A stretch of DNA of 10,275 nt from a virus, in the UHGV virus genome UHGV-0180488. One strand, 5' to 3'. A program made the position numbers and the translations under genes. The notes under the pieces were generated by a model. The model saw only the letters and a program-made list of their open reading frames with translations. It ran no database searches and was not told where the DNA came from. This document shows positions 257 through 9,931 of the stretch, piece by piece; positions within the stretch are counted from its first letter, which is position 1; every line of letters starts with the position of its first letter.

Positions 257-1063
257 TTAGGCGTCAGCATCAGCATCCTCCGCTACCTCTGCTTCCACAT
301 CAGCCACGGCTTCATCGGACGGTTCTTCTTTGGCCTGATCTGCAATCGCCGCACGGCATTTCGCCCTGGCTGTAGCGATTGCTTCAGCTCGCACATCATC
401 AGGAATCGTTGACGTGATATACATATCCAGTTCTTCGGCGCGGAACACTGTTTGGTCCAGATATTCGCGTAGCATCCAGGTAAATTCGAAATCACACGCG
501 ATAATCTCTGCGCTACCTTCCGCACCATTAGGGAAGTGGATAAACGCTTGTTTGGCTAAACCAATAACACGACATGCGGTTGCCAAAACAGCGACAACCA
601 GGTTTACATTTTCACACGCTACGGGCTGATTAACGCCGGAGATTACTCCATTTAACTGTCGGTTATATGGAAGGTAGTTTGAGATGCGTTCTACGCGCCA
701 TGTGCCAGTCAGGCTGCCATTTCTAAAGATGATTGGGGTAACGGACAGCCCAAGCTCGCGGATAAGTCGTTGCGCTATAGCATGATCATTAAACAGGTCC
801 AATGCTACACATTCGAAAGACTGTGCAAGGGTAAACAGTTCTTCCAGAGAGTAGTCTTTTCCTCTGGCTGTAATATGACGACGAGCGCCGTTATCTGCAT
901 CGCTCCATATAGCTACGCCATGCTCTTCATTCAGTTCTTCATTAAAGCCGAGATACGTCATGATAGTGCGTTCAATCGTGTCAAACGGCAGTGACATGTC
1001 GGCGTTAACAGCCACCAGCAGGCCATTACGCAAGCGGTATTGAATTGCTTTAGTATTTTCCAC
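257..1063 (-). CDS. Hypothetical protein, 268 aa, with a poly-acidic C-terminal tail
   Basis: Long ORF with a GTG start preceded by GGTGGAG 9 nt upstream; its start is 6 nt after the stop of the upstream gene. C-terminus EEPSDEAVADVEAEVAEDADADA. I recognise no catalytic motif. Confidence 0.7.
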   Translation of the reverse strand: MENTKAIQYRLRNGLLVAVNADMSLPFDTIERTIMTYLGFNEELNEEHGVAIWSDADNGARRHITARGKDYSLEELFTLAQSFECVALDLFNDHAIAQRLIRELGLSVTPIIFRNGSLTGTWRVERISNYLPYNRQLNGVISGVNQPVACENVNLVVAVLATACRVIGLAKQAFIHFPNGAEGSAEIIACDFEFTWMLREYLDQTVFRAEELDMYITSTIPDDVRAEAIATARAKCRAAIADQAKEEPSDEAVADVEAEVAEDADADA

Positions 1064-1069
1064 GTTAAA

Positions 1070-1738
1070 TCACTCCACCACAAACCAGTCACATGCCAGT
1101 AAGTCGCCTACAGAAGGAACCCACGGAACAACTACACCTTGTGCATTTTTTAAGGCGAAATAAGCACCATACGGAACGAGGTCGCCGGGGAAATATCCCT
1201 TAATGGCTTCCATTCGTGCCGGGTACTGTCCTTCAGGAACCAGCCAGCAGAATTGGTTTTCGCCGTTCCACCCGCGCCGGGCAACTTTCTTGCCATCCTT
1301 CAGCCACATCAGCGCGTCAGAAAAGTCGGCTGCTTCAAGGTCGATTTCTTCTTGTTTGGTAATGATGCCACCGGCAGCAATAGTTACGTCCCTGGCTGTA
1401 ATGAATGTCACACCATTGTGATCAATGCTGAGCGATACCCCATTTTCGAAGAAGTCGTTAGTCCGACTAAAGCCTTCTTCAAATGTTTTTTCTGGTGAAT
1501 AGGACAGACAACCATCTTGATCAACGAGCAGATACCCGCCAATCTCTGGTCTGTATTTTTGTAGAAACATTGCATCAACACGAACCGTTACGCCTTTTGG
1601 CTCAGTGACTGTGATATCACCCCAAAGAGTAAATGTGCCAATCAGATTGATCTTTTTGATTTTCGATGCGCGAATGATTCCGTGGTGTTTGTACTTAGGG
1701 AGCGTCTTTAAAAGCTCTTTCGTTGCTATGTTGTCCAT
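1070..1738 (-). CDS. Hypothetical two-domain protein, 222 aa: unknown N-terminal domain fused to a C-terminal DUF2829 (Tad2-like) domain
   Basis: ATG at 1738-1736 preceded by GGGGAAAG. The C-terminal ~84 aa (approx. nt 1070-1324), FSDALMWLKDGKKVARRGWNG...VVPWVPSVGDLLACDWFVVE, fits the DUF2829 pattern as I recall it (G-K-K-V-x-R-x-G-W-N-G near the start, P-W-x-P-S-x-x-D-L-L-A-x-D-W at the end). The N-terminal ~138 aa has no motif I recognise. Confidence 0.8.
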   Translation of the reverse strand: MDNIATKELLKTLPKYKHHGIIRASKIKKINLIGTFTLWGDITVTEPKGVTVRVDAMFLQKYRPEIGGYLLVDQDGCLSYSPEKTFEEGFSRTNDFFENGVSLSIDHNGVTFITARDVTIAAGGIITKQEEIDLEAADFSDALMWLKDGKKVARRGWNGENQFCWLVPEGQYPARMEAIKGYFPGDLVPYGAYFALKNAQGVVVPWVPSVGDLLACDWFVVE

Positions 1739-1800: not shown

Positions 1801-2247
1801 TTACGATGTGCTACCAAAGCCACCAGCACCACGTTCCGTTTCGTTGAGTTCTTCAGCCTCGACTAGTGAGACTTGTTCAACACGCTCAAAAATGCCTTGC
1901 ATGACAGCCATTCCAGGCTTGAGACAAACGCCTTCCCCGCCGGGATCAGTAATTAGTTTTGCCATGATTTCGCCGCGATAATCGGAGTCGATAATTCCTA
2001 CGCAGTTAGCCAGGCGAGTATGTTTTTTGCAGCCCAATCCGGATCGCGGATAGAGTTTCAGACACCAGCCGGGCGGGATCTCCATAGCCAGTCCGGTATA
2101 CACCCACCAGCTTGAGGAAATTGCACCATTGCTATCGACGCATGGTGTTATTTCAACAGCCTCAAAATCCATTGCTGCCGATCCTGCGGTGGCATAGAAC
2201 GGCAGTTTTGCACCAGGATGCAGGCGCTTCACTTTTACGTTAATCAT
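1801..2247 (-). CDS. dut: dUTP diphosphatase (trimeric dUTPase), 148 aa
   Basis: From the internal ATG at 2247-2245: MINVKVKRLHPGAKLPFYATAGSAAMDF...LYPRSGLGCKK...GIIDSDYRGEI...RGAGGFGSTS, which carries the conserved dUTPase motifs (RSG, G-x-ID-x-DYRGE, C-terminal R-G-x-GGFGS). The 249-aa track ORF 1801..2550 is an upstream extension that overlaps the preceding gene. Start is 2 nt after the stop of the 163-aa ORF. Confidence 0.9.
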   Translation of the reverse strand: MINVKVKRLHPGAKLPFYATAGSAAMDFEAVEITPCVDSNGAISSSWWVYTGLAMEIPPGWCLKLYPRSGLGCKKHTRLANCVGIIDSDYRGEIMAKLITDPGGEGVCLKPGMAVMQGIFERVEQVSLVEAEELNETERGAGGFGSTS

Positions 2248-2731
2248 GCTTCTTTGCTCTTTTGGTGAAGGTGTAAATTCGACGTTTAATATGCGGGGCA
2301 GTCGGTACGGATACGTTTGTGGATTCGATAATGCCTTGCTCTTCAAGAGAGCGAACGGCACGCAGGAACTGAGACGCATCGCCGCCACCGGACAGCCAGA
2401 ATTTACGGGCGTAAATGCTGCCGTTACGGATAATTTCAGCAACGACACGAGACTGGGTTTGTGTTTCACGATAGGCAAACAGTTGCCGGGCTTCTTCCGG
2501 CGTAATAGCCAGTTGATAGCCTTTCCCCTTATGGGCGCGAAGAAAACCAAACGACACCAGGTGTTTTAGTTCCCTGCGCGTAGTCTCATAACCGTATTCC
2601 TGTATCTGGAGATTGAGATCGGCGGGCTTTAGCCATGCTTCCGGCGACTCAGTAAGAAGCACCAGCAACTTACCGGATAGCTCAGGGGAGGAAGACGGGT
2701 AACAGTTAAGAGATGGGTAATAGTGTTTCAT
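2240..2731 (-). CDS. Hypothetical protein, 163 aa, probably two winged-helix-like DNA-binding modules
   Basis: ATG at 2731-2729 with AAGGGGG 6 nt upstream, overlapping the stop of the upstream 114-aa ORF (ATGA). The pattern of hydrophobic helices followed by G-K-G-Y and basic stretches (FGFLRAHKGKGYQL; IYARKFWLSGGG) suggests wHTH folds. This is inference, not a motif match. Confidence 0.7.
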   Translation of the reverse strand: MKHYYPSLNCYPSSSPELSGKLLVLLTESPEAWLKPADLNLQIQEYGYETTRRELKHLVSFGFLRAHKGKGYQLAITPEEARQLFAYRETQTQSRVVAEIIRNGSIYARKFWLSGGGDASQFLRAVRSLEEQGIIESTNVSVPTAPHIKRRIYTFTKRAKKHD

Positions 2732-3072
2732 TTGCGCCCCCTTACTGGATAATGAGAGCGGGCATCAACCGGAGCAATGAATCCGGTTGTAGGGCGGGAA
2801 AATACGAGATCAATCTTCTCGGTCATGGCGCGATAGTTTTCCTGATAGTGGGCCAGGAGTTTTTCAGCAGCAATGACGGTTACTCGCCGGACGTAGCTTT
2901 CAGCTTCGCCCAGGTTTGACCATTTCTTTTCGAGGGTAAGTACAGGTACGGTCTCAAGCCCTGTCATGATTCCAAACACCACGACAGCCTCGCCGCGCTT
3001 AACGCCAGCAGCAAAGGTTACGGTGTAACCGTCAACCGTGAAACGCCTTGATTCCGTGATACGACTCTGCAA
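2728..3072 (-). CDS. Hypothetical protein, 114 aa if the TTG start is used; first gene of the accessory operon
   Basis: ORF in the gap between dre and the 163-aa gene. The only plausible start is TTG at 3072-3070, preceded by CTGGGGG; an internal ATG at residue 36 would give 79 aa. Its stop overlaps the next gene's start. Confidence 0.5.
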   Translation of the reverse strand: MQSRITESRRFTVDGYTVTFAAGVKRGEAVVVFGIMTGLETVPVLTLEKKWSNLGEAESYVRRVTVIAAEKLLAHYQENYRAMTEKIDLVFSRPTTGFIAPVDARSHYPVRGRK

Positions 3073-3128
3073 AGTACCCCCAGAAAAAACAGGCGTACTT
3101 TACAGTAAAATGCAGTGTTAAAAAAGGG

Positions 3129-3138
3129 TGTTAGAAAT
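3129..3138 (-). promoter_or_regulatory. Operator-like motif TGTTAGAAAT between the dre stop and the accessory operon
   Basis: One of five copies of the 8-mer GTTAGAAA in the window, all intergenic. It sits in the 72-bp gap upstream of the 114-aa ORF, beside a TTAACA hexamer. Confidence 0.3.
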
Positions 3139-3144
3139 TTAATC

Positions 3145-4173
3145 TCATGAATCCATGAGGCGGCTATTGGCACCTGCTGTCACACCGCCACGACGAAGAT
3201 AACGCATCAGTGTTTCGGGCTTCTTCCATGTACCTTCCTGCATAATTTCAACCAAAGACACCTGTTTTTCAGCCATATCTATGGCGGCACCAACACGCGC
3301 ACTGTGGCCTGTCCACGTCCGGTAACGGCCTTTATTGGGGGTGGCATCACTCTTACCCAGCAGCGCCCAGGCGTCACTGAAAATCTTCTCCATCGCGGGC
3401 ACGGTTAATGGCGTGGTGGTGATCCGCGCTTTGTTGCTCCGGTGTACTGGCGGGAAAAGTATCGCATCCGGGTGCTCACGTAGTCCGGACGCGTCCAGCC
3501 AGTCATTGAGAACCGCAGTTGTCCAGCGGGAGAGCACCTTATCAAGTCCGGCGGCGGTCGTGATGGTTTTGGTGTGGGATACGTGAAGCGTTACAGTGTC
3601 ACCAGTCTGTTCCAGATCGCGAACACGCACGCGGGACATTTCAGCCATACGCAACAGGGTATTGTAGGCCAGGAACAGAAAAGCCCGGTTGCGCAGATCC
3701 ACCAGCCTGTCAGAGCGGGAGAGCAGCACGTCGAGCAGTTTCAGGTCATCCCAGCGCAGGGGCACTGCCTGGCCTGTGCGTTCGCCTTTTTCGGTTGCAG
3801 CTTCGCGCCGGATGCGCCGCATCGCCAGGGATACGCTTTTGTCATCAGAGAGTTGCGGCAGTCCGCATTGTGACAACAGCATATTGAGCATGGCGTAATG
3901 CTTTTCAATGGTGGTTGAAGCCAGATCCGCATCATGCAGTTGAAGCAGGTATTCGCGGGCAGCTTCCGGGGAGATCGGAAACCACGCAAGACCACGAGCG
4001 TGGCACCATCGCGCCCAGGAGTGAAAGACCAGGCGCAGATCGCGCAGTGTATTAGGTGAGTAAGCACCCTGGTCATTAAGGAACTGCATGAAATTTTTGG
4101 CGGCTTCCTGGTACTCAGCACCAATATCACGAAGAAACATGCCAGGATTACCGGAGATAATAAGTTTACTCAT
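3145..4173 (-). CDS. dre: Cre-family tyrosine site-specific recombinase, Dre-like, 342 aa
   Basis: The translation aligns along its length with P1 Cre as I recall it (e.g. AYNTLLRMAE vs AYNTLLRIAE; GHSARVGAAIDMAEKQVSLVEIMQEGTWKKPETLMRYLR vs GHSARVGAARDMARAGVSIPEIMQAGGWTNVNIVMNYIR, with the catalytic Tyr context conserved), at roughly 40-45% identity by eye. A rox-like site rather than loxP lies 153 bp upstream, which is why I call it Dre (the Cre homologue of phage D6). ATG at 4173-4171 with AGAGGTGA upstream. Confidence 0.92.
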   Translation of the reverse strand: MSKLIISGNPGMFLRDIGAEYQEAAKNFMQFLNDQGAYSPNTLRDLRLVFHSWARWCHARGLAWFPISPEAAREYLLQLHDADLASTTIEKHYAMLNMLLSQCGLPQLSDDKSVSLAMRRIRREAATEKGERTGQAVPLRWDDLKLLDVLLSRSDRLVDLRNRAFLFLAYNTLLRMAEMSRVRVRDLEQTGDTVTLHVSHTKTITTAAGLDKVLSRWTTAVLNDWLDASGLREHPDAILFPPVHRSNKARITTTPLTVPAMEKIFSDAWALLGKSDATPNKGRYRTWTGHSARVGAAIDMAEKQVSLVEIMQEGTWKKPETLMRYLRRGGVTAGANSRLMDS

Positions 4174-4316
4174 GTAATCATTTCACCTCTATAAATTGGT
4201 GTCGCTACGCGAAAAAACAAAAAATGACAGGCTAGTTATCCGTGAGAATTTAAAATTTAAGCCCTTGATTCGAACCATGACTTTTTGAGTCTGTCAATAC
4301 TGATCGTTTGATCATT

Positions 4317-4344
4317 ATTATATACTAACTTTAAATAATGCCAA
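4317..4344 (-). promoter_or_regulatory. Putative sigma70 promoter for dre, with its -35 inside the rox-like site
   Basis: On the minus strand: -35 TTGGCA (4344-4339), 16-bp spacer, -10 TATAAT (4322-4317). Predicted start near 4310, inside the GATC pair at 4302-4305 and 4310-4313. Sequence-only prediction. Confidence 0.35.
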
Positions 4345-4357
4345 TTATCTAAAGTTA
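4326..4357. other. rox-like recombination target site for the Dre-like recombinase
   Basis: TAACTTTAAATAAT (4326-4339), spacer GCCA (4340-4343), ATTATCTAAAGTTA (4344-4357). This is the rox site as I remember it (TAACTTTAAATAATGCCAATTATTTAAAGTTA) with one difference, C instead of T at 4349, which makes the arms imperfectly symmetric. Flanking C (4325) and G (4358) extend the palindrome. Confidence 0.85.
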
Positions 4358-4509
4358 GAAAGGGAGAAAATTTTTTTGAAAAAAAGGATCAAGTGATCAA
4401 AAAAGAAACCGTGCTATTAGTGGTAGTTAGACGCTTAAACCCAGGATTTTGAAGAAGGTTTTCTAAGAAGAACAATAAAAAATTCCATGTTGATCCTTTA
4501 CTCATCGTG

Positions 4510-4537
4510 TTGTACCGCTTAAATTTGAGTACATAAT
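4510..4537 (+). promoter_or_regulatory. Putative sigma70 promoter for the c1-like gene
   Basis: -35 TTGTAC (4510-4515), 16-bp spacer, -10 CATAAT (4532-4537). Predicted start around 4544-4546, about 25 nt before the ATG at 4570. Sequence-only prediction. Confidence 0.3.
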
Positions 4538-4541
4538 TTTA

Positions 4542-4551
4542 TGTTAGAAAA
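4542..4551 (+). promoter_or_regulatory. Operator-like motif TGTTAGAAAA over the predicted c1 transcription start
   Basis: Copy of the GTTAGAAA 8-mer lying 19-27 nt upstream of the c1-like ATG and just downstream of the predicted -10, a position typical of an autoregulatory operator. Confidence 0.35.
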
Positions 4552-4569
4552 CTAATTCGAGTAGGAAGG

Positions 4570-5607
4570 ATGAATAAAAGAACAATCGAGAAAGAGTACA
4601 AACAGTTCCGGTCTGTTGCTGAACGTTGGAAGGAGCTGGTGGTATCAAACTCAGTGTTCCATGACACCAGTTATAACGGAGAGGAATTCCGTCATGTTGC
4701 TTTGACACATGATCCAGACGTCTTGAAAGAAGCCGAAGAATGCCTGGTCGCCTGGAAAGCATTTGTGGACGTATGCCGCAATGCTGGTGGGAAAAAGCTG
4801 AATATCGTTGAGACAGTATATCTTCCGATCCCATTCATCATTGAGGACACGAATCAAAGTACACACATTGTCGTATCTACAGCTTCGACTACCAGAACGT
4901 TCACTCGCGAGAGTTTGCTGAAAAAGTACGATAATGTCATTAAGAAAAGTAAAAAAAGCCCTATCTTTTCTCAGGTCGTAGATGCCCTTGAAAAAGAAAG
5001 ACATTTCTTTGCAATGGAGCCGGAAGGCGAACTCTATCGCGCACGAAAAGATGACTATACCGATGTGGTGCTGACCTCTGATCTCACATCTGACAACACC
5101 CTGTCTCGCTTAAGAGTGGGTGCGCACGGGGCGCTGGTGTTCTCACGCAATAAAGAATTGAAGATCCCTGTGGTTAATAACGTAGATGAACGCCGTAGTA
5201 TTACCGTTTATTCCGGTGTGAAGCCTATCCCTTGTGGCCCGCTGGGCGATTTTAGTCTGTATCGTGTGAACGACATCACCAGGAGTCAGCCAAGCTATGT
5301 GGCTAAGGCCTATATTCTGCGTAGCATTGAGTCCAGAAACCTGAGTTTTAACAACAAAAGCCAGGCGCTTCTGAACTCTACGCCGCCTGAGATCCTCCAG
5401 GTCATTGAAAGAAAGGTGAACGCGGCGAGAGAGGCGCTTATCCGCCTGGAAAAAATGGACATGGAGTTGATTGATGTCATGATGGCATCAGGCGATGACC
5501 TGACAGGTATCCGGCTGACCGATGCACGCAAGAAATACGGCAAAGAAATTGAGGAACGATACGGATACACGTTCAATCAAACAATGTCAGCAACAAAACT
5601 TCGTTAA
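4570..5607 (+). CDS. c1: C1-like phage repressor of lysogeny, 345 aa
   Basis: Position matches the P1/D6 layout (convergent with pacB, divergent from the lox/rox-recombinase unit). Local matches to P1 C1 as I recall it: LNIVETVYLPIPFII vs LNIPKTILYPVPNIL, VNNVDERRSITVYSGVKPI vs INGEFEKAKFSLYDSIEPI, SLYRVNDI vs KIYRLADI. Overall identity is low (perhaps ~30%) and the protein is about 60 aa longer than P1 C1. Confidence 0.7.
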   Translation: MNKRTIEKEYKQFRSVAERWKELVVSNSVFHDTSYNGEEFRHVALTHDPDVLKEAEECLVAWKAFVDVCRNAGGKKLNIVETVYLPIPFIIEDTNQSTHIVVSTASTTRTFTRESLLKKYDNVIKKSKKSPIFSQVVDALEKERHFFAMEPEGELYRARKDDYTDVVLTSDLTSDNTLSRLRVGAHGALVFSRNKELKIPVVNNVDERRSITVYSGVKPIPCGPLGDFSLYRVNDITRSQPSYVAKAYILRSIESRNLSFNNKSQALLNSTPPEILQVIERKVNAAREALIRLEKMDMELIDVMMASGDDLTGIRLTDARKKYGKEIEERYGYTFNQTMSATKLR

Positions 5608-5613
5608 TCCACC

Positions 5614-5633
5614 AGCCCCGCAAAAGCGGGGCT
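5614..5633. terminator. Hairpin between the convergent c1-like and pacB-like genes
   Basis: 8-bp stem AGCCCCGC (5614-5621) / GCGGGGCT (5626-5633) with an AAAA loop, followed on the plus strand by TTAAATAT. It sits in the 26-bp gap between the c1 stop (5605-5607) and the pacB stop (5634-5636). The U-tract is weak on both strands. Confidence 0.5.
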
Positions 5634-7139
5634 TTAAATATCCAGTTCCGGCATTTCGACATCCGCCAGCACTTTATCGCGCAAGGCCAGCATTTCAGCC
5701 GTAGCCTCTTCATTTGCAGGGGTGTAATCCACCAGCCAGGCAAAACAGTAGGTATCCCAACGGTCTGGGGAAGGAATATTCAGTTTTTGCCGCATGACTT
5801 TCTTTTCTGTCATTTTAAGCGTGCCGTCTTCCTTCAACTCATAAGGAATACGTGATGCTTGCGTGGCAGTCTTCTCGCTGGAATCAAGCCGCATCCGACC
5901 GCTCATAATCGCATCCCTTGCAGAAAAGTTGGCGAAGGTACGCTGATTTGCATAACGTTTTTTGTCCTCTTTCGAGAACATTGGGGATCCCCACCGTATA
6001 CGGACAGGGCTTGCACCACGGCGTACCAACTGATCAGCCGTTGCCGCGCCGATACCGTCTGAGTCAACAGCAATGGTGATATTGGGGTAACGTTCCTGAG
6101 TGCATTCGTTATAGATAAAGTCGGCAAACATCAGCGGATCCATTGTGCCCGGCATTTCCAGAATCTTAAACGGAACAACGCGGCGTTTTTCACGCTTCCC
6201 TGATACTTTCATGATATTCAGGACAGACTTATCGCGACCATTACCAACGTCAGCGGTAGCCACCCAGCCCCAGTCTTTTTCCAGCAACACCTTGCGCCGT
6301 GCGGCGCGATCACATTCGTCACGACCAAGCAAGTAACCGTTAATTTCTCGCGGGAATTGCCCCAGCACCTTAACCATGTACTCAAGGGAATCCCGCCCAC
6401 CGTATTCAATCAGTTTTTCCTTGATAAATTTAGGCTCAACAAACGGCGACTCTTCCGAATTCAGAATGATCGATGTCCAGGTGCCATTCGGATTATGTTC
6501 GCTTTTCGCATTTTTATGGTGTGAATCATAAAAATAACCACTCGGACGCGTCGGCTGTGACATCATGAGCATACGGTTATCCTTCTCCGTCAATGCCCCG
6601 GTTAAGATGTTTATCGCTTTGTCAGAGATACCTGATGCTTCATCAAGTATCAGGAATAAGTGTTTGGCGTGCTCGCCCGCCAGTGATTCCTCGTTACCAG
6701 GCCTGTAGCCTTTACAAAGCACTTCCCAGATCCCCTTACGTGAGCGTTCGTAAAAAACCGTGTCAGTGAGGATAAAGTATTGTTTAAGCCAGCTATGCCG
6801 TCTGACAGCGTTCTGCCAAAAGATTTTGACGTACTTAAATACACCACTTTTGACCTGGCTAATTTTGTTTGCGACGATGACAACACGCGCATCGGGGAAC
6901 AGAATCATATAGATCAGCAACAGCATGGCTGTCAGGGATGATTTACCCGTACCGTGGCCTGATGTGACCGTTGTTCTGCTGCCAATATCCTGAACGGAAT
7001 TAATGATTTGCTCTTGCTGGTGGGATGGTATCAAGCCAAATAACTCAACAACCGCAAGAGCAAAGTTTAGTCTGTATTTAATCGACAATTGCCGCCAGCG
7101 TGGGTCGCTGGTTACGCACTTAATCTTCCCTCCCGCCAT
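5634..7139 (-). CDS. pacB: Terminase large subunit, PacB-like, 501 aa
   Basis: Walker A TSGHGTGKSS and Walker B LFLILDEASG in the N-terminal half, followed by an acidic nuclease-like region (IAVDSDGIG). Size is similar to P1 PacB. ATG at 7139-7137 with AGAGGAAG upstream, 2 nt after the stop of the upstream gene. Confidence 0.85.
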   Translation of the reverse strand: MAGGKIKCVTSDPRWRQLSIKYRLNFALAVVELFGLIPSHQQEQIINSVQDIGSRTTVTSGHGTGKSSLTAMLLLIYMILFPDARVVIVANKISQVKSGVFKYVKIFWQNAVRRHSWLKQYFILTDTVFYERSRKGIWEVLCKGYRPGNEESLAGEHAKHLFLILDEASGISDKAINILTGALTEKDNRMLMMSQPTRPSGYFYDSHHKNAKSEHNPNGTWTSIILNSEESPFVEPKFIKEKLIEYGGRDSLEYMVKVLGQFPREINGYLLGRDECDRAARRKVLLEKDWGWVATADVGNGRDKSVLNIMKVSGKREKRRVVPFKILEMPGTMDPLMFADFIYNECTQERYPNITIAVDSDGIGAATADQLVRRGASPVRIRWGSPMFSKEDKKRYANQRTFANFSARDAIMSGRMRLDSSEKTATQASRIPYELKEDGTLKMTEKKVMRQKLNIPSPDRWDTYCFAWLVDYTPANEEATAEMLALRDKVLADVEMPELDI

Positions 7140-7141
7140 CG

Positions 7142-8464
7142 TCAGTCTTCCTCTGGCGGGGTAATAGCAATATCGTCGTAAATATCAGCCGTAGCGGATG
7201 GGTCAAGCTCCAGTCCTTCATCATCGGCTTCAAACTCACCAGCTTTTCTTTCACCGTTGGCGTCGTAATCCCCCAGGCCTAACTGGTCAACTACTCTGGC
7301 AACATCTTCACGGCGCTGTTTGAGCCACTCTGAAAGCTCTGCTTTTTGTTTGGCGTACTCTTCGGCTTCACGCTGGATCTGGTCATCATCAACATCACTG
7401 CTGTCAACTACTGGCGGTTCCAGAAGCGTGATAGCTTTCGCCGCACGCGCAGCCAGGATTGCAGGAACACTTACCCCTTGCCGCTCGATGTATTCCGCAA
7501 CACCTATATCGTCCAGTTCTTCGCGCTCGCGCATACGTATAGCGGTTGCAATAACCCTGGCGGCGCGTGCATCAGCGCCAAGACGATAGTCAATCTCTTT
7601 GCTACGTTGCTCTGCCTGTAGGCGTGCAATGTCCAGTTTTTCTCTGGCCTCAGCCTCTTTAAATGCCTGCTGCCGCGCCCCCTGAATCAGTTTTTCCTGG
7701 CCTTGCTGGAGTTTTTGCTCTGTCTGATAAATGGCTGCGAGGCGGCTGATGAAGTCGTTCATGTAATAGGCGGCATCCTGCATGAGGCCGCAGAGACGCT
7801 GGGCCGGGTGTATCCCTTCCGGCTCGCCATCGCCTAAAATATCAATTTCTTTACGTAGCCGTGCCGCCTCCATGTCTACAATTGACTGGTATTCTATGGC
7901 GCGTTCCTGAGCCATCAGGATGGCCTTACGCAGATGTTCAGCCGCACCGTTCTGCATCATTTCACGGGCGACATTTTTCGACGGCAAGGTGGCACATTGT
8001 GCTGATTCGCCGTGGATCATTTGCGATGATCTCTGACTTGAAGATGCCTTTTTATCCTTTTCTGGGATCATTTTTGCTTTTTTATCGGCAAATGATCCCT
8101 TTGATAAATCCACTAACTCACTGTTATCAATGGGCTTATCAGCATGATCCGCGTTACGCTTGCGTGGCATCTCCCTGAATTGACTTGTCGCCGGCTTATT
8201 GTCAGTTTTTGTAAATTCTGATTCTTTTCCGCTCGCTCGTTGCTGTTTTTTTGTCCCACCAGCACGGGGTTGCTGGCGTGTTCTGGCGCGGTTCTTTGAT
8301 GGTTTAACTTTGGCCTGCACCTCATTTTTTTTCATATTGAGATGCTTTCTGGCAGTGTTGAAACTAAGGCCATTTTGTTCACAGTATTCCTTTACCGTGA
8401 TCCCTTTTTCCTCTTTCAGCGCCAGAAACCGGGCACGATGCTCTTCCCAATTAACCAGTGTCAT
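7142..8464 (-). CDS. pacA: Terminase small subunit, PacA-like, 440 aa
   Basis: N-terminal HTH-like segment (ITVKEYCEQNGLSFNTARKHL), a basic low-complexity linker, a coiled-coil-like middle and an acidic C-terminus. It lies immediately upstream of, and is coupled to, the large terminase gene, and contains a GATC cluster like the P1 pac site. Called by synteny and architecture, not by strong sequence recall. Confidence 0.65.
   Translation of the reverse strand: MTLVNWEEHRARFLALKEEKGITVKEYCEQNGLSFNTARKHLNMKKNEVQAKVKPSKNRARTRQQPRAGGTKKQQRASGKESEFTKTDNKPATSQFREMPRKRNADHADKPIDNSELVDLSKGSFADKKAKMIPEKDKKASSSQRSSQMIHGESAQCATLPSKNVAREMMQNGAAEHLRKAILMAQERAIEYQSIVDMEAARLRKEIDILGDGEPEGIHPAQRLCGLMQDAAYYMNDFISRLAAIYQTEQKLQQGQEKLIQGARQQAFKEAEAREKLDIARLQAEQRSKEIDYRLGADARAARVIATAIRMREREELDDIGVAEYIERQGVSVPAILAARAAKAITLLEPPVVDSSDVDDDQIQREAEEYAKQKAELSEWLKQRREDVARVVDQLGLGDYDANGERKAGEFEADDEGLELDPSATADIYDDIAITPPEED
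8015..8149. other. Candidate pac (packaging cleavage) site: cluster of five GATC hexamers inside pacA
   Basis: GATC at 8015, 8028, 8066, 8094 and 8146 (five in 135 bp against about 0.5 expected), in TGATC/GATCA contexts that resemble the TGATCA/G elements of the P1 pac site. The rest of the 1.3-kb gene has only two GATC. Confidence 0.45.
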
Positions 8465-8853
8465 ACAGCAACACCACGGCGTTTAATGGCTTCATTCCAC
8501 AATCTGTTAGCCATGTTCACCAGTTCACGGCGTTCCGTCTGATTCTTGCCAGTGATAAATCGGTTGGAATTCTTTACAAGCAGGCGGTCAAACTGCGGTG
8601 TACGTCCGCGTACCTTAAACTGATACCCGTCAAGGCCATGAAGCCAGTATTTGCGCGGGTATACGCGGTCATCGCGCTCACAAATAGCCCTGCTCGAACG
8701 AACAAAGTGACGGATGATATTGTTAACATTGACACGTGATACGTGAAGATGAGGATATTTATCTTTGGCGAGGGTGGTTATCTCAGTGACTGTAAGATAA
8801 CAGTCTTTCCTGATCATGATATCCGCTATTTCAGCACTGCTGATTTTATCCAT
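8461..8853 (-). CDS. Hypothetical protein, 130 aa, first gene of the packaging operon; possibly an Lpa-like late activator by position only
   Basis: ATG at 8853-8851 with GGGGGGA upstream; its stop overlaps the pacA start (ATGA). In P1 the late-promoter activator gene lpa precedes pacA, but I cannot confirm sequence similarity. Confidence 0.55.
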   Translation of the reverse strand: MDKISSAEIADIMIRKDCYLTVTEITTLAKDKYPHLHVSRVNVNNIIRHFVRSSRAICERDDRVYPRKYWLHGLDGYQFKVRGRTPQFDRLLVKNSNRFITGKNQTERRELVNMANRLWNEAIKRRGVAV

Positions 8854-8933
8854 TAAATCCCCCCGGGCAGAGAATGACCAGGGGTATATTAATCAGTATG
8901 TTAATTGTTTATAGACTGTCTAAAGGCGAGTAG

Positions 8934-8963
8934 TGTTAGAAATTACAGGTTTTATTTCTAACA
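8934..8963. promoter_or_regulatory. Inverted repeat TGTTAGAAAT-N10-ATTTCTAACA upstream of the packaging operon; candidate operator
   Basis: Perfect 10-bp arms at 8934-8943 and 8954-8963 with a 10-bp spacer, containing two inverted copies of the GTTAGAAA 8-mer. It lies between the stop of the 131-aa gene (8964-8966) and the 130-aa gene start (8853), upstream of TATAAA and TAATAT hexamers on the minus strand. Confidence 0.4.
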
Positions 8964-9356
8964 TTACCATCTGCTTAAACGAACAATATGTCTTACTTTT
9001 GCGGACCACTTCCCTTTGGTTTTGTTGACTACCGCCTGCGCCAGCCTTAACTCGCTTTCATAATCAGCCTTACGCCCATCGTTTTCCGACAGCAAATAGC
9101 CTTCAACTTGTGGTACGGTCAGATAGTCCTGATCAACATTAAGTGGTCCTGTGGGTGCTCTGAACGGCGTTAGTTGCTTTGCGTTCCAGTTAAATCGAAT
9201 ACGTACGTCACGAACGGCAAGGGTTGCATACCCATGCACGGTACTTTCGTAACCTAGTTTTGTTTCGCCTGCATGACATGACGTGATTTTGCAGTCAAGC
9301 AACTTCCAGTCCATTTCCTTAGCTTGTGCAACTGTTAGCTTCTGCTCTTCGTACAT
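8964..9356 (-). CDS. Hypothetical protein, about 130 aa
   Basis: ORF on the minus strand. I prefer the ATG at 9356-9354 (GGGAGG 7 nt upstream) to the TTG one codon earlier used in the track. The ATG overlaps the TGA of the upstream gene by 1 nt. Confidence 0.6.
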   Translation of the reverse strand: MYEEQKLTVAQAKEMDWKLLDCKITSCHAGETKLGYESTVHGYATLAVRDVRIRFNWNAKQLTPFRAPTGPLNVDQDYLTVPQVEGYLLSENDGRKADYESELRLAQAVVNKTKGKWSAKVRHIVRLSRW

Positions 9357-9931
9357 CAAAATGCCTCCCAGTCAGTTGCCATAATGTCTACGCTGCTGGC
9401 AAACCAGTCAGAACGTGCTTGCAAAGCACCATCCATCATTACCAGACGTGGAAGCACGGAGACTTTGACGCCCTTTTGCACGTTGAATATTTCTTCCGGA
9501 AGAAAGCTAACCATCTTGTCCTTACTTTCAATGCAGCCGGGTTCAAGTGATATGTACTGTCCTTTAGGCCAGGATTTTCGGCGTGCGTCTAATCCGTTCA
9601 TTAACCAGTGGATTGCGACAGAAAAAGGAATGTTTGCTTTGGCAATGGACAGTCCACCAGCGACAGCCTGTTTATGAAACTTGAGGAGTTTTACAGCGGC
9701 CTCGGCAAGCGCAACATAAGGTTCTGGATGGACTTCGGTAAGGCTGCATCCACGAACTGTTACTGTCACAGCATGGGAATCGCCTTCTGATGCCGTTTCG
9801 ATGTTGACCCCTTTGTTTGACAGTGCGTGATACAAAGCGTCACCCATGCATGACCAGCGTTCATTGCGTCCAATGAACTCACTCAGGATGCGATCCTGCT
9901 CTGTATACGTTGCATTAGTCAAAACAGTCAT
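9356..9931 (-). CDS. Hypothetical protein, 191 aa
   Basis: ORF with a strong ribosome-binding site (AAAGGAGAGG before the ATG at 9931-9929), coupled to the next gene. No motif recognised. Confidence 0.65.
   Translation of the reverse strand: MTVLTNATYTEQDRILSEFIGRNERWSCMGDALYHALSNKGVNIETASEGDSHAVTVTVRGCSLTEVHPEPYVALAEAAVKLLKFHKQAVAGGLSIAKANIPFSVAIHWLMNGLDARRKSWPKGQYISLEPGCIESKDKMVSFLPEEIFNVQKGVKVSVLPRLVMMDGALQARSDWFASSVDIMATDWEAF

Follow-up and report, generated by a model that had tools for sequence, protein, structure and literature searches.

The C1 repressor of bacteriophage P1 acts at about 22 dispersed, asymmetric 17-bp operators with the consensus ATTGCTCTAATAAATTT (PMC8546580); we obtained this consensus from the 20 C1 operators annotated in the P1 record AF234172. 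No operators are annotated in the GenBank records of phage D6 (AY753669, MF356679). Full-text searches found no description of a D6-type operator, the primary D6 papers (Gilcrease & Casjens 2018; Sauer & McDermott 2004) being outside their reach and an earlier report being possible. The operator described here is of a kind known from P1, with a D6-type sequence that is apparently unannotated. The window, that is, the whole stretch of 10,275 nucleotides analysed from UHGV virus genome UHGV-0180488, is the immC region of a D6-like, P1-related plasmid prophage, as judged by megablast and the annotation of relatives, and contains doc, the dut operon, dre, rox, c1, pacB, pacA and lpa. By analogy with P1, and with a probability that we put at roughly three in four, its repeated 8-mer GTTAGAAA is the core, itself invariant, of the operator to which the D6-type C1 repressor binds. 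An original prediction, made from the letters alone, had proposed an operator set for a C1-like repressor of altered specificity; enrichment, synteny with P1, conservation in ten loci and membership of a common PHROG family support that idea, and from them we infer binding.

We found exactly five exact copies of GTTAGAAA in the window, the number given in the original prediction: 3130-3137, 4354-4361, 4543-4550 and 8935-8942 on the plus strand and 8955-8962 on the minus strand, the last of which had been placed one base off, at 8956-8963. In 200 dinucleotide-preserving shuffles the expectation was 0.25 copies, close to the figure of about 0.3 proposed earlier; the maximum was 3, and five were never reached. 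As had been claimed, none lies in a coding region: all five are outside the genes annotated in relatives, in non-coding DNA that makes up 10.7% of the window (P=1.4e-5), and GTTAGAAA is the commonest 8-mer there. The only open reading frames (ORFs) that the copies overlap, 3018-3173 (-) and 4544-4834 (-), are spurious and annotated in no relative. The putative operators and the promoters predicted near them are as follows.

3127-3145, plus strand: monovalent operator, extended sequence TGTGTTAGAAATTTAATCT, core GTTAGAAA at 3130-3137, between the dre stop (3145) and the orf2 start (3072)
4460-4467, minus strand: c1-distal and operator-like, 83 bp upstream of the proximal site; its core, CTTAGAAA, matches at 7/8 positions
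4497-4525, plus strand: candidate c1 promoter, TTTACT (4497-4502)-17 nt-TAAATT (4520-4525), between the two c1 operators
4540-4558, plus strand: c1-proximal operator, core at 4543-4550, 19 bp before the c1 ATG (4570)
8895-8922, minus strand: predicted lpa promoter, TAGACA-16-CATACT, 9/12 in a consensus scan, its -35 lying 12 nt downstream of the proximal core
8932-8965, no strand assigned: bivalent inverted-pair operator, core-N12-core, cores at 8935-8942 (+) and 8955-8962 (-), both exact

Two relatives were scanned whole, the D6 genome and the 94%-identical Shigella plasmid CP026818. D6 has 13 copies of GTTAGAAA, 11 of them in the 10.2% of its DNA that is non-coding (binomial P=8e-10), with an intergenic density ~48-fold the coding density, and the 8-mer is among its three most frequent intergenic 8-mers; in the Shigella plasmid 14 of the 15 copies fall outside annotated coding sequences. 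The enrichment thus extends over complete elements, and the equal frequency in coding DNA that the original prediction had considered as an outcome is not seen. P1, used as a control, has five copies, all intragenic and none with the flank consensus. The 8-mer is the core of an asymmetric extended motif, WRTGTTAGAAAWYTAAnnT. Among 32 sites there is a T at -1 in 31, an A at +11 in 27 and at +12 in 29, and a T at +15 in 25, which gives an operator motif of ~17-19 bp with weaker preferences out to about 26 bp.

A position weight matrix (PWM) was trained only on D6 and Shigella sites outside the region homologous to the window; shuffled windows gave 0.09 hits of at least 12 bits. The background for the flanks scored without the core had a mean of -17.0, with the 95th percentile at -4.7, the 99th at +0.3 and the 99.9th at +6.2. 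The sites in the window scored as follows.

4543 (+): total 26.5 bits, flank-only +11.5
3130 (+): total 23.5 bits, flank-only +8.4
8935 (+): total 13.4 bits, flank-only -1.7
8955 (-): total 10.2 bits, flank-only -4.9
4354 (+): total -2.8, flank-only -17.8
4460 (-), 7/8 core: total -1.8, flank-only -11.3

The flank-only scores at 4543 and 3130 exceed the 99.9th percentile, and those at 8935 and 8955 lie near the 98th and 95th. The scores therefore separate two strong sites, one moderately supported pair and a copy at 4354 that has no support beyond its 8-mer, leaving 3130, 4543 and the 8935/8955 pair as the credible operators of the window on sequence grounds. The copy at 4354 does sit at the edge of rox, as the original prediction had noted, for the right arm of rox (whole site 4326-4357) ends in the GTTA of this copy (4354-4357). 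As an operator it is doubtful: the remaining GAAA varies among relatives, its flank-only score equals the background mean, and the copy is not conserved (GTTATAAA in D6 and E. coli CP028585; GTTAGAAG in the Shigella and Salmonella plasmids). It is probably fortuitous, or a weak operator at most.

What applies to 4354 might apply to the others, which would then be by-products of other features or of AT-rich composition: the tail of a dre terminator at 3130, the c1 leader or ribosome-binding site at 4543 and a chance palindrome at 8935/8955, beside the rox arm at 4354. The reverse complement of the motif at 3130 does follow a hairpin, and the spacer between rox and c1 is only 36-37% GC. Such an origin is nonetheless highly improbable, because the shuffles never yield five copies, the extended motif occurs 11-14 times in the non-coding DNA of the relatives and hardly at all in their coding DNA, and conservation of the motif persists where its flanks vary. 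For four of the five copies these results have largely refuted it, and the family of repeated 8-mers very probably represents real cis-regulatory sites.

The positions of the sites mirror those of the P1 C1 operators, as the original prediction had maintained, and are syntenic with about ten of those annotated in the P1 record. Each P1 operator is given here with its D6-type counterpart.

Oc1a-d: c1 leader (window 4543 and 4460)
Olpa: upstream of lpa (window 8935/8955)
Oref: upstream of ref
Omat: 3' end of ref
Oc4: upstream of icd-ant (immI)
OrepL: upstream of repL (GTTAGCAA, 21.6 bits)
Odmt: upstream of hrdC-dmt
OpmgRa/b: between pmgR and pmgS
Oppp: at pmgM
OpmgT: downstream of pmgS

Common to P1 and the D6-type elements are sites at c1, lpa, ref, immI, repL, hrdC-dmt and pmgR/S, often at orthologous genes; asymmetric sites of ~17 bp in either orientation, mostly monovalent with a few inverted bivalent pairs; and several autoregulatory sites at c1 together with one site for the late activator gene lpa. 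The systems differ in the number of sites (about 15-17 in D6-type elements, 20-22 in P1), in the offset of the bivalent sites (20 bp, against 11 bp in the overlapping P1 pairs Obanab and Oc1ab) and above all in the sequence of the operator, which is unrelated to that of P1 save for a possible TCTAA pentamer. No match to ATTGCTCTAATAAATTT with up to three mismatches occurs in the window, in agreement with the earlier statement that a P1 operator is absent; the CTAA core that had been thought common to the two operators is a mere five-base likeness, TCTAA, indistinguishable from chance. Alignment of the operator motif with the P1 operator gave TCTAA only in one orientation and 6/16 positions in the other, and was rejected as evidence of common descent. 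In D6 and the Shigella plasmid the core 8-mers of P1 are no more frequent than expected by chance, compared with 15-16 copies in P1. The gene order near c1 is also rearranged relative to P1 (dre-rox-c1-pacB-pacA-lpa), and the region, unlike that of P1, has no coi/imcA/imcB cluster between the recombination site and c1: none of these genes was found before c1, where 4174-4569 holds only unsupported ORFs of 21-42 aa and the spacer is occupied by rox, promoters and operators. The immC region of phage D6 has the same gene order and the same motif at the same places; its lpa site consists of a ATTAGAAA core with a decayed partner, and the rox-edge copy is absent.

The presumed binder, C1 (345 aa), is 69% identical to the C1 protein of D6 and homologous to the repressor of the P1/P7 system: BLASTP aligns it with P1 C1 at 24% identity over 168 aa (E 4e-8), and both proteins match PHROG 1678 (E 1e-131 for the window protein and 3e-140 for P1 C1). 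Its homologues carry the precomputed Pfam assignment PF27008, Phage_P7_repressor_C1; a local Pfam-A search gave no match, the family being visible only in precomputed annotations. Against NCBIfam NF041318, the equivalog model of P1 C1 with a cut-off of 500 bits, the protein scored 28.8 bits over residues 7-240, and so it is not an equivalog. By sequence, C1 is a distant member of the P1 C1 family, and this distance fits an altered specificity. The D6-type protein is 62 aa longer than P1 C1, with a predicted C-terminal helical hairpin.

Searching with the protein brought out C1 homologues as little as 45% identical, in loci whose intergenic DNA is otherwise unalignable. Four of these (L013, L015, L016 and L017, with C1 proteins 45-52% identical to that of the window) were examined, and all have an exact GTTAGAAA about 30 bp 5' of c1. 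A second, inverted exact copy lies upstream, at an offset of 84 bp in L013, L015 and L016 and of 96 bp in L017, and in the first three (C1 46-52% identical) a copy also precedes the orf2 homologue. At the c1, orf2 and lpa positions the core persists despite the divergence of C1, and alignments of six relatives show the motif as an invariant island amid varying flanks. Its geometry is equally constant: the eight convergent pairs, that of lpa in the window included, all have a 20-bp offset (core-N12-core), and the divergent pair at c1 has an offset of 83-84 bp in seven loci. A scan for the bivalent palindrome TGTTAGAAA-N10-TTTCTAACA gave no match in IMG/VR and 36 in GTDB representatives, in unrelated phyla and with none in Enterobacteriaceae, a number roughly estimated to be near chance; it was uninformative because the representatives of enterobacterial species probably lack D6-like plasmids.

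These properties (motif enrichment, restriction to intergenic DNA, synteny with P1, deep conservation, pair geometry and the homology of C1) argue for C1 as the protein that binds. The motif might instead be a real binding site for another regulator, either a host factor or a conserved D6-like protein such as the product of orf2, orf3 or an orf5-like gene. Conserved proteins with no assigned function (PHROGs 1968, 6669 and 7004) are encoded beside the sites, and the motif stays constant while C1 diverges to 45% identity. We consider a different binder unlikely all the same: in every lineage the c1 leader itself contains the best-conserved site, the distribution of sites reproduces the P1 C1 regulon gene by gene, and the mixture of monovalent and bivalent sites matches that of C1 operators. 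To our knowledge the motif is also unlike the consensus sequences of IHF, Fis, DnaA and LexA, which counts against a host factor.

Other observations weigh against the assignment of these sites to C1. The repressor is linked to them by analogy and position, and the core does not co-vary with the protein, remaining unchanged from 45% to 100% C1 identity, so that co-evolution of specificity cannot serve as a test. The sites from D6 and Shigella used in training are in part orthologous, hence not independent, and the flank scores of the lpa pair are only modest. The promoter predictions are weak, which makes the geometry of repression uncertain: that of lpa reaches 9/12; that of c1 reaches 8/12, under the threshold of the scan tool, and comes from conservation; and the promoter scan found none for orf2. 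At 3130 the reverse complement of the motif forms the weak T-rich tail of a terminator-like hairpin.

The motif might itself be a promoter element, either the extended -10 of an early sigma-70 promoter (TGTTAGAAA compared with TGnTAtAAt) or a late box for Lpa, the late promoter activator. The string TG-T-TAGAAA has the TG and fits four of the six positions of the -10 hexamer, and many sites are 15-90 bp upstream of start codons. The last base of the would-be -10 is always A, where sigma-70 strongly prefers T, the motif does not keep one orientation with respect to the gene that follows (it is opposite at orf2 and orf86 but the same at c1, pmgS and ref), and palindromic pairs occur at a fixed 20-bp offset; on these three grounds we rejected the extended -10. 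The late box was rejected because the sites precede lpa and c1 themselves and the late operons of the lineage have a distinct box, AAATCACA. In D6 and the Shigella plasmid this box, followed by a -10-like element, stands before the head, tail and lysis operons; P1 late promoters have AAGTGACTT near -22, and AAATCACA is probably the Lpa late-promoter box of the D6 lineage. Taken together, a promoter function for GTTAGAAA is very improbable. At D6 positions 9062 and 54192, AAATCACA comes directly after a GTTAGAAA operator.

The motif could also act in RNA, as the mRNA-leader target of an antisense RNA (as with the C4 RNA targets in P1 immI) or of a translational regulator, for it lies 14-19 nt before the starts of c1 and pmgS in the sense orientation, probably in the 5' untranslated region. 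This too has little probability, because several sites (orf2, lpa, orf86) are antisense to the following gene or upstream of a predicted -35, and inverted pairs with fixed spacing point to recognition of double-stranded DNA. An operator for C1 is the reading that we retain in considering the individual sites.

At lpa, the pair is identical in the Shigella plasmid; in D6, E. coli and E. marmotae its left copy persists as ATTAGAAAATTAAT, and its right copy decays. A -35-like box with GTCT is conserved before lpa in relatives (TTGACA in E. marmotae, TTACCA in D6). The original prediction had placed the pair upstream of the packaging operon, which is right as to location and imprecise as to the gene, for lpa heads an lpa-pacA-pacB cluster and the pair precedes it, as with P1 Olpa.

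At c1, the proximal sequence TTTTATGTTAGAAAA is invariant in 10 loci, including those with C1 proteins of 45-52% identity, and TTTTCTAA is invariant at the distal position in six relatives. The distal site (4460-4467) had been missed by the original prediction; its position is conserved, and in the window it has no flank support. Both hexamers of the candidate c1 promoter are conserved in 9 of 10 aligned loci. The copy at 4543 had been thought to cover the transcription start of c1. Its place upstream of the gene is correct; it would not overlap the start, being at about +12 to +19 of the conserved TTTACT-17-TAAATT promoter.

Between dre and orf2, TGTTAGAAAWTTAAT is invariant at the junction in six relatives and its flanks are variable. 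The terminator-like hairpin there, CTCATGGATTCATGAG (3144-3159, minus strand), spans the dre stop codon and has a 6-bp stem followed by ATTAAATTTC; its T-run is poor, and the motif at 3130 is conserved beyond the needs of a terminator tail. The orf2 operon is the presumed target of the 3130 operator. At ~3070-3110 (minus strand) the TTG start of orf2 and its presumed Shine-Dalgarno sequence lie within a second, conserved hairpin, AAAGTAC...GTACTTT. The stem is a perfect 11 bp in E. marmotae and D6, with different inner bases (AAAGTACCCTC/GAGGGTACTTT), a difference in sequence that suggests compensatory change.

These sites suggest a circuit in which, in a lysogen, C1 would occupy three control regions of the window, those of lpa, c1 and the accessory operon. 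Bound at 8932-8965, just upstream of the lpa -35, C1 would keep Lpa off, and late transcription would in turn be off, that of the terminase genes pacA and pacB downstream included; Olpa has the same function in P1. At 4540-4558, with the degenerate partner at 4460-4467, it would autoregulate c1, possibly by looping, and at 3127-3145, covering the -35 and the upstream part of the accessory-operon promoter, it would control the orf2-orf3-dut operon. Repression might be by occlusion, roadblock or loop. The rest of the regulon would consist of another 10-15 operators elsewhere (at ref, immI, repL, hrdC-dmt, pmgR/S and others). We infer the identity of the binder, the positions of the promoters and the occlusion or looping alike.

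An AlphaFold2 model of C1 built from 11 homologues (mean predicted local distance difference test, pLDDT, 83.4; predicted template modelling score, pTM, 0.51) has the E. coli Tus-Ter complexes as its only significant matches in the PDB (Foldseek E 1.3e-7 to 3.2e-7 over ~305 columns, with template modelling (TM) scores of 0.33-0.40). The sequence found nothing in the PDB, whether as a single sequence or as a profile, and BFVD gave no significant match. Tus is a monomer clamped on a long asymmetric site (about 21 bp), and in this the resemblance agrees with the anatomy of the operator; the two differ in having no sequence similarity and in role, Tus-Ter arresting replication forks and C1 presumably repressing transcription. 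A Tus-like fold is at this stage a lead, drawn from prediction and modest TM-scores. More tentatively still, and with the balance of probability against it, the D6-type operator might define a second, heterospecific C1 regulon whose repressor is a Tus-fold monomer clamping an asymmetric site of ~17-26 bp (TGTTAGAAA core and TAA..T tail), the extra C-terminal helical hairpin pairing bound monomers in place of the P1 accessories Lxc and Coi. The rigid 20-bp spacing of the bivalent sites and the 83-84 bp loop conserved at c1 would both follow from pairing of this kind, and the C1 proteins as a family, that of P1 among them, would then be the first transcriptional repressors on the Tus fold. We know of no solved structure for the C1 family, and the operators provide concrete DNA targets for structural work on it.

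With a defined consensus the C1 regulon becomes predictable from sequence for any D6-like element, including the genes that would be silent in the lysogen (lpa, and thus packaging and late functions). A D6-type operator would explain heteroimmunity with P1, and it would supply an orthogonal repressor/operator pair beside the popular Dre/rox recombinase. D6-like phage-plasmids occur widely in E. coli, Shigella and Salmonella, invasive and multidrug-resistant lineages among them (PMC6799933; bioRxiv 10.1101/2025.09.12.675607), and their immunity circuitry has so far been unannotated.

Plasmids of Shigella dysenteriae, E. coli and E. fergusonii match nearly the entire window at 91-94% identity by megablast, and phage D6 matches parts of it at 77-84% DNA identity. 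The remaining features of the window, mapped from the annotation of D6 (AY753669, MF356679) and the Shigella plasmid CP026818, are given below.

To about 170, plus strand: 3' end of doc
257-1063, minus strand: isaA-like gene
1070-1738, minus strand: DUF2829 gene
About 1801-2247, minus strand: dut
2240-2731, minus strand: orf3
2728-3072, minus strand: orf2, first gene of the orf2-orf3-dut-DUF2829-isaA-like operon (gene order and annotation, D6 and Shigella plasmid)
3145-4173, minus strand: dre
4326-4357, no strand assigned: rox site for Dre, TAACTTTAAATAAT-GCCA-ATTATCTAAAGTTA, which aligns to the annotated rox of the D6 record AY753669
4570-5607, plus strand: c1, 345 aa, D6-type C1 repressor
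5634-7139, minus strand: pacB
7142-8464, minus strand: pacA
8461-8853, minus strand: lpa, late promoter activator (Pfam PF25716 BPP1_LPA, E 2e-48)
8964-9931, minus strand: two small genes
80, 1012, 1820, 2104, 3699, 4635, 4783, 5609, 5729, 7016, 8256 and 9654: Chi sites

At rox, the right arm in the window has a T-to-C mismatch at 4349, and the spacer is ACTA in the Shigella and Salmonella relatives as against GCCA in the window. A sigma-70 promoter near consensus, TTGGCA-16-TATAAT (11/12; 4317-4344, minus strand), points toward dre, and its -35 spans the rox spacer.

The called start of the C1 homologue in L015 (P0007, 359 aa; JGI contig Ga0397306_00023, 10001-10010) is the ATG inside tATGTTAGAAA, that is, within the operator, and the true start is probably about 14 codons downstream. 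In the D6 record a 1.2-kb unannotated stretch at 7850-9085, from the tRNA genes to pmgS, has strong operators at 8918 and 9074 and a late-promoter-like box at 9062, and may hold an unannotated gene or RNA.

Chi (GCTGGTGG) occurs 12 times in the window against an expectation of 0.33, on the minus strand in eight cases and the plus strand in four, and almost all copies are intragenic. It is the most frequent 8-mer in three of the four divergent-C1 loci, L013 (31 copies in 21 kb), L017 (18) and L016 (14), and is among the commonest in L015 (nine copies); P1 is reportedly rich in Chi as well.

In Salmonella Typhi, the conjugative IncFIB plasmid pK91 (NZ_CP029912) has a 97%-identical fragment that extends from doc to c1 and includes both operators. 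The fragment ends inside pacB at IS26, with qnrS1 a few kb away; it is a D6-like immunity region stranded on a resistance plasmid.

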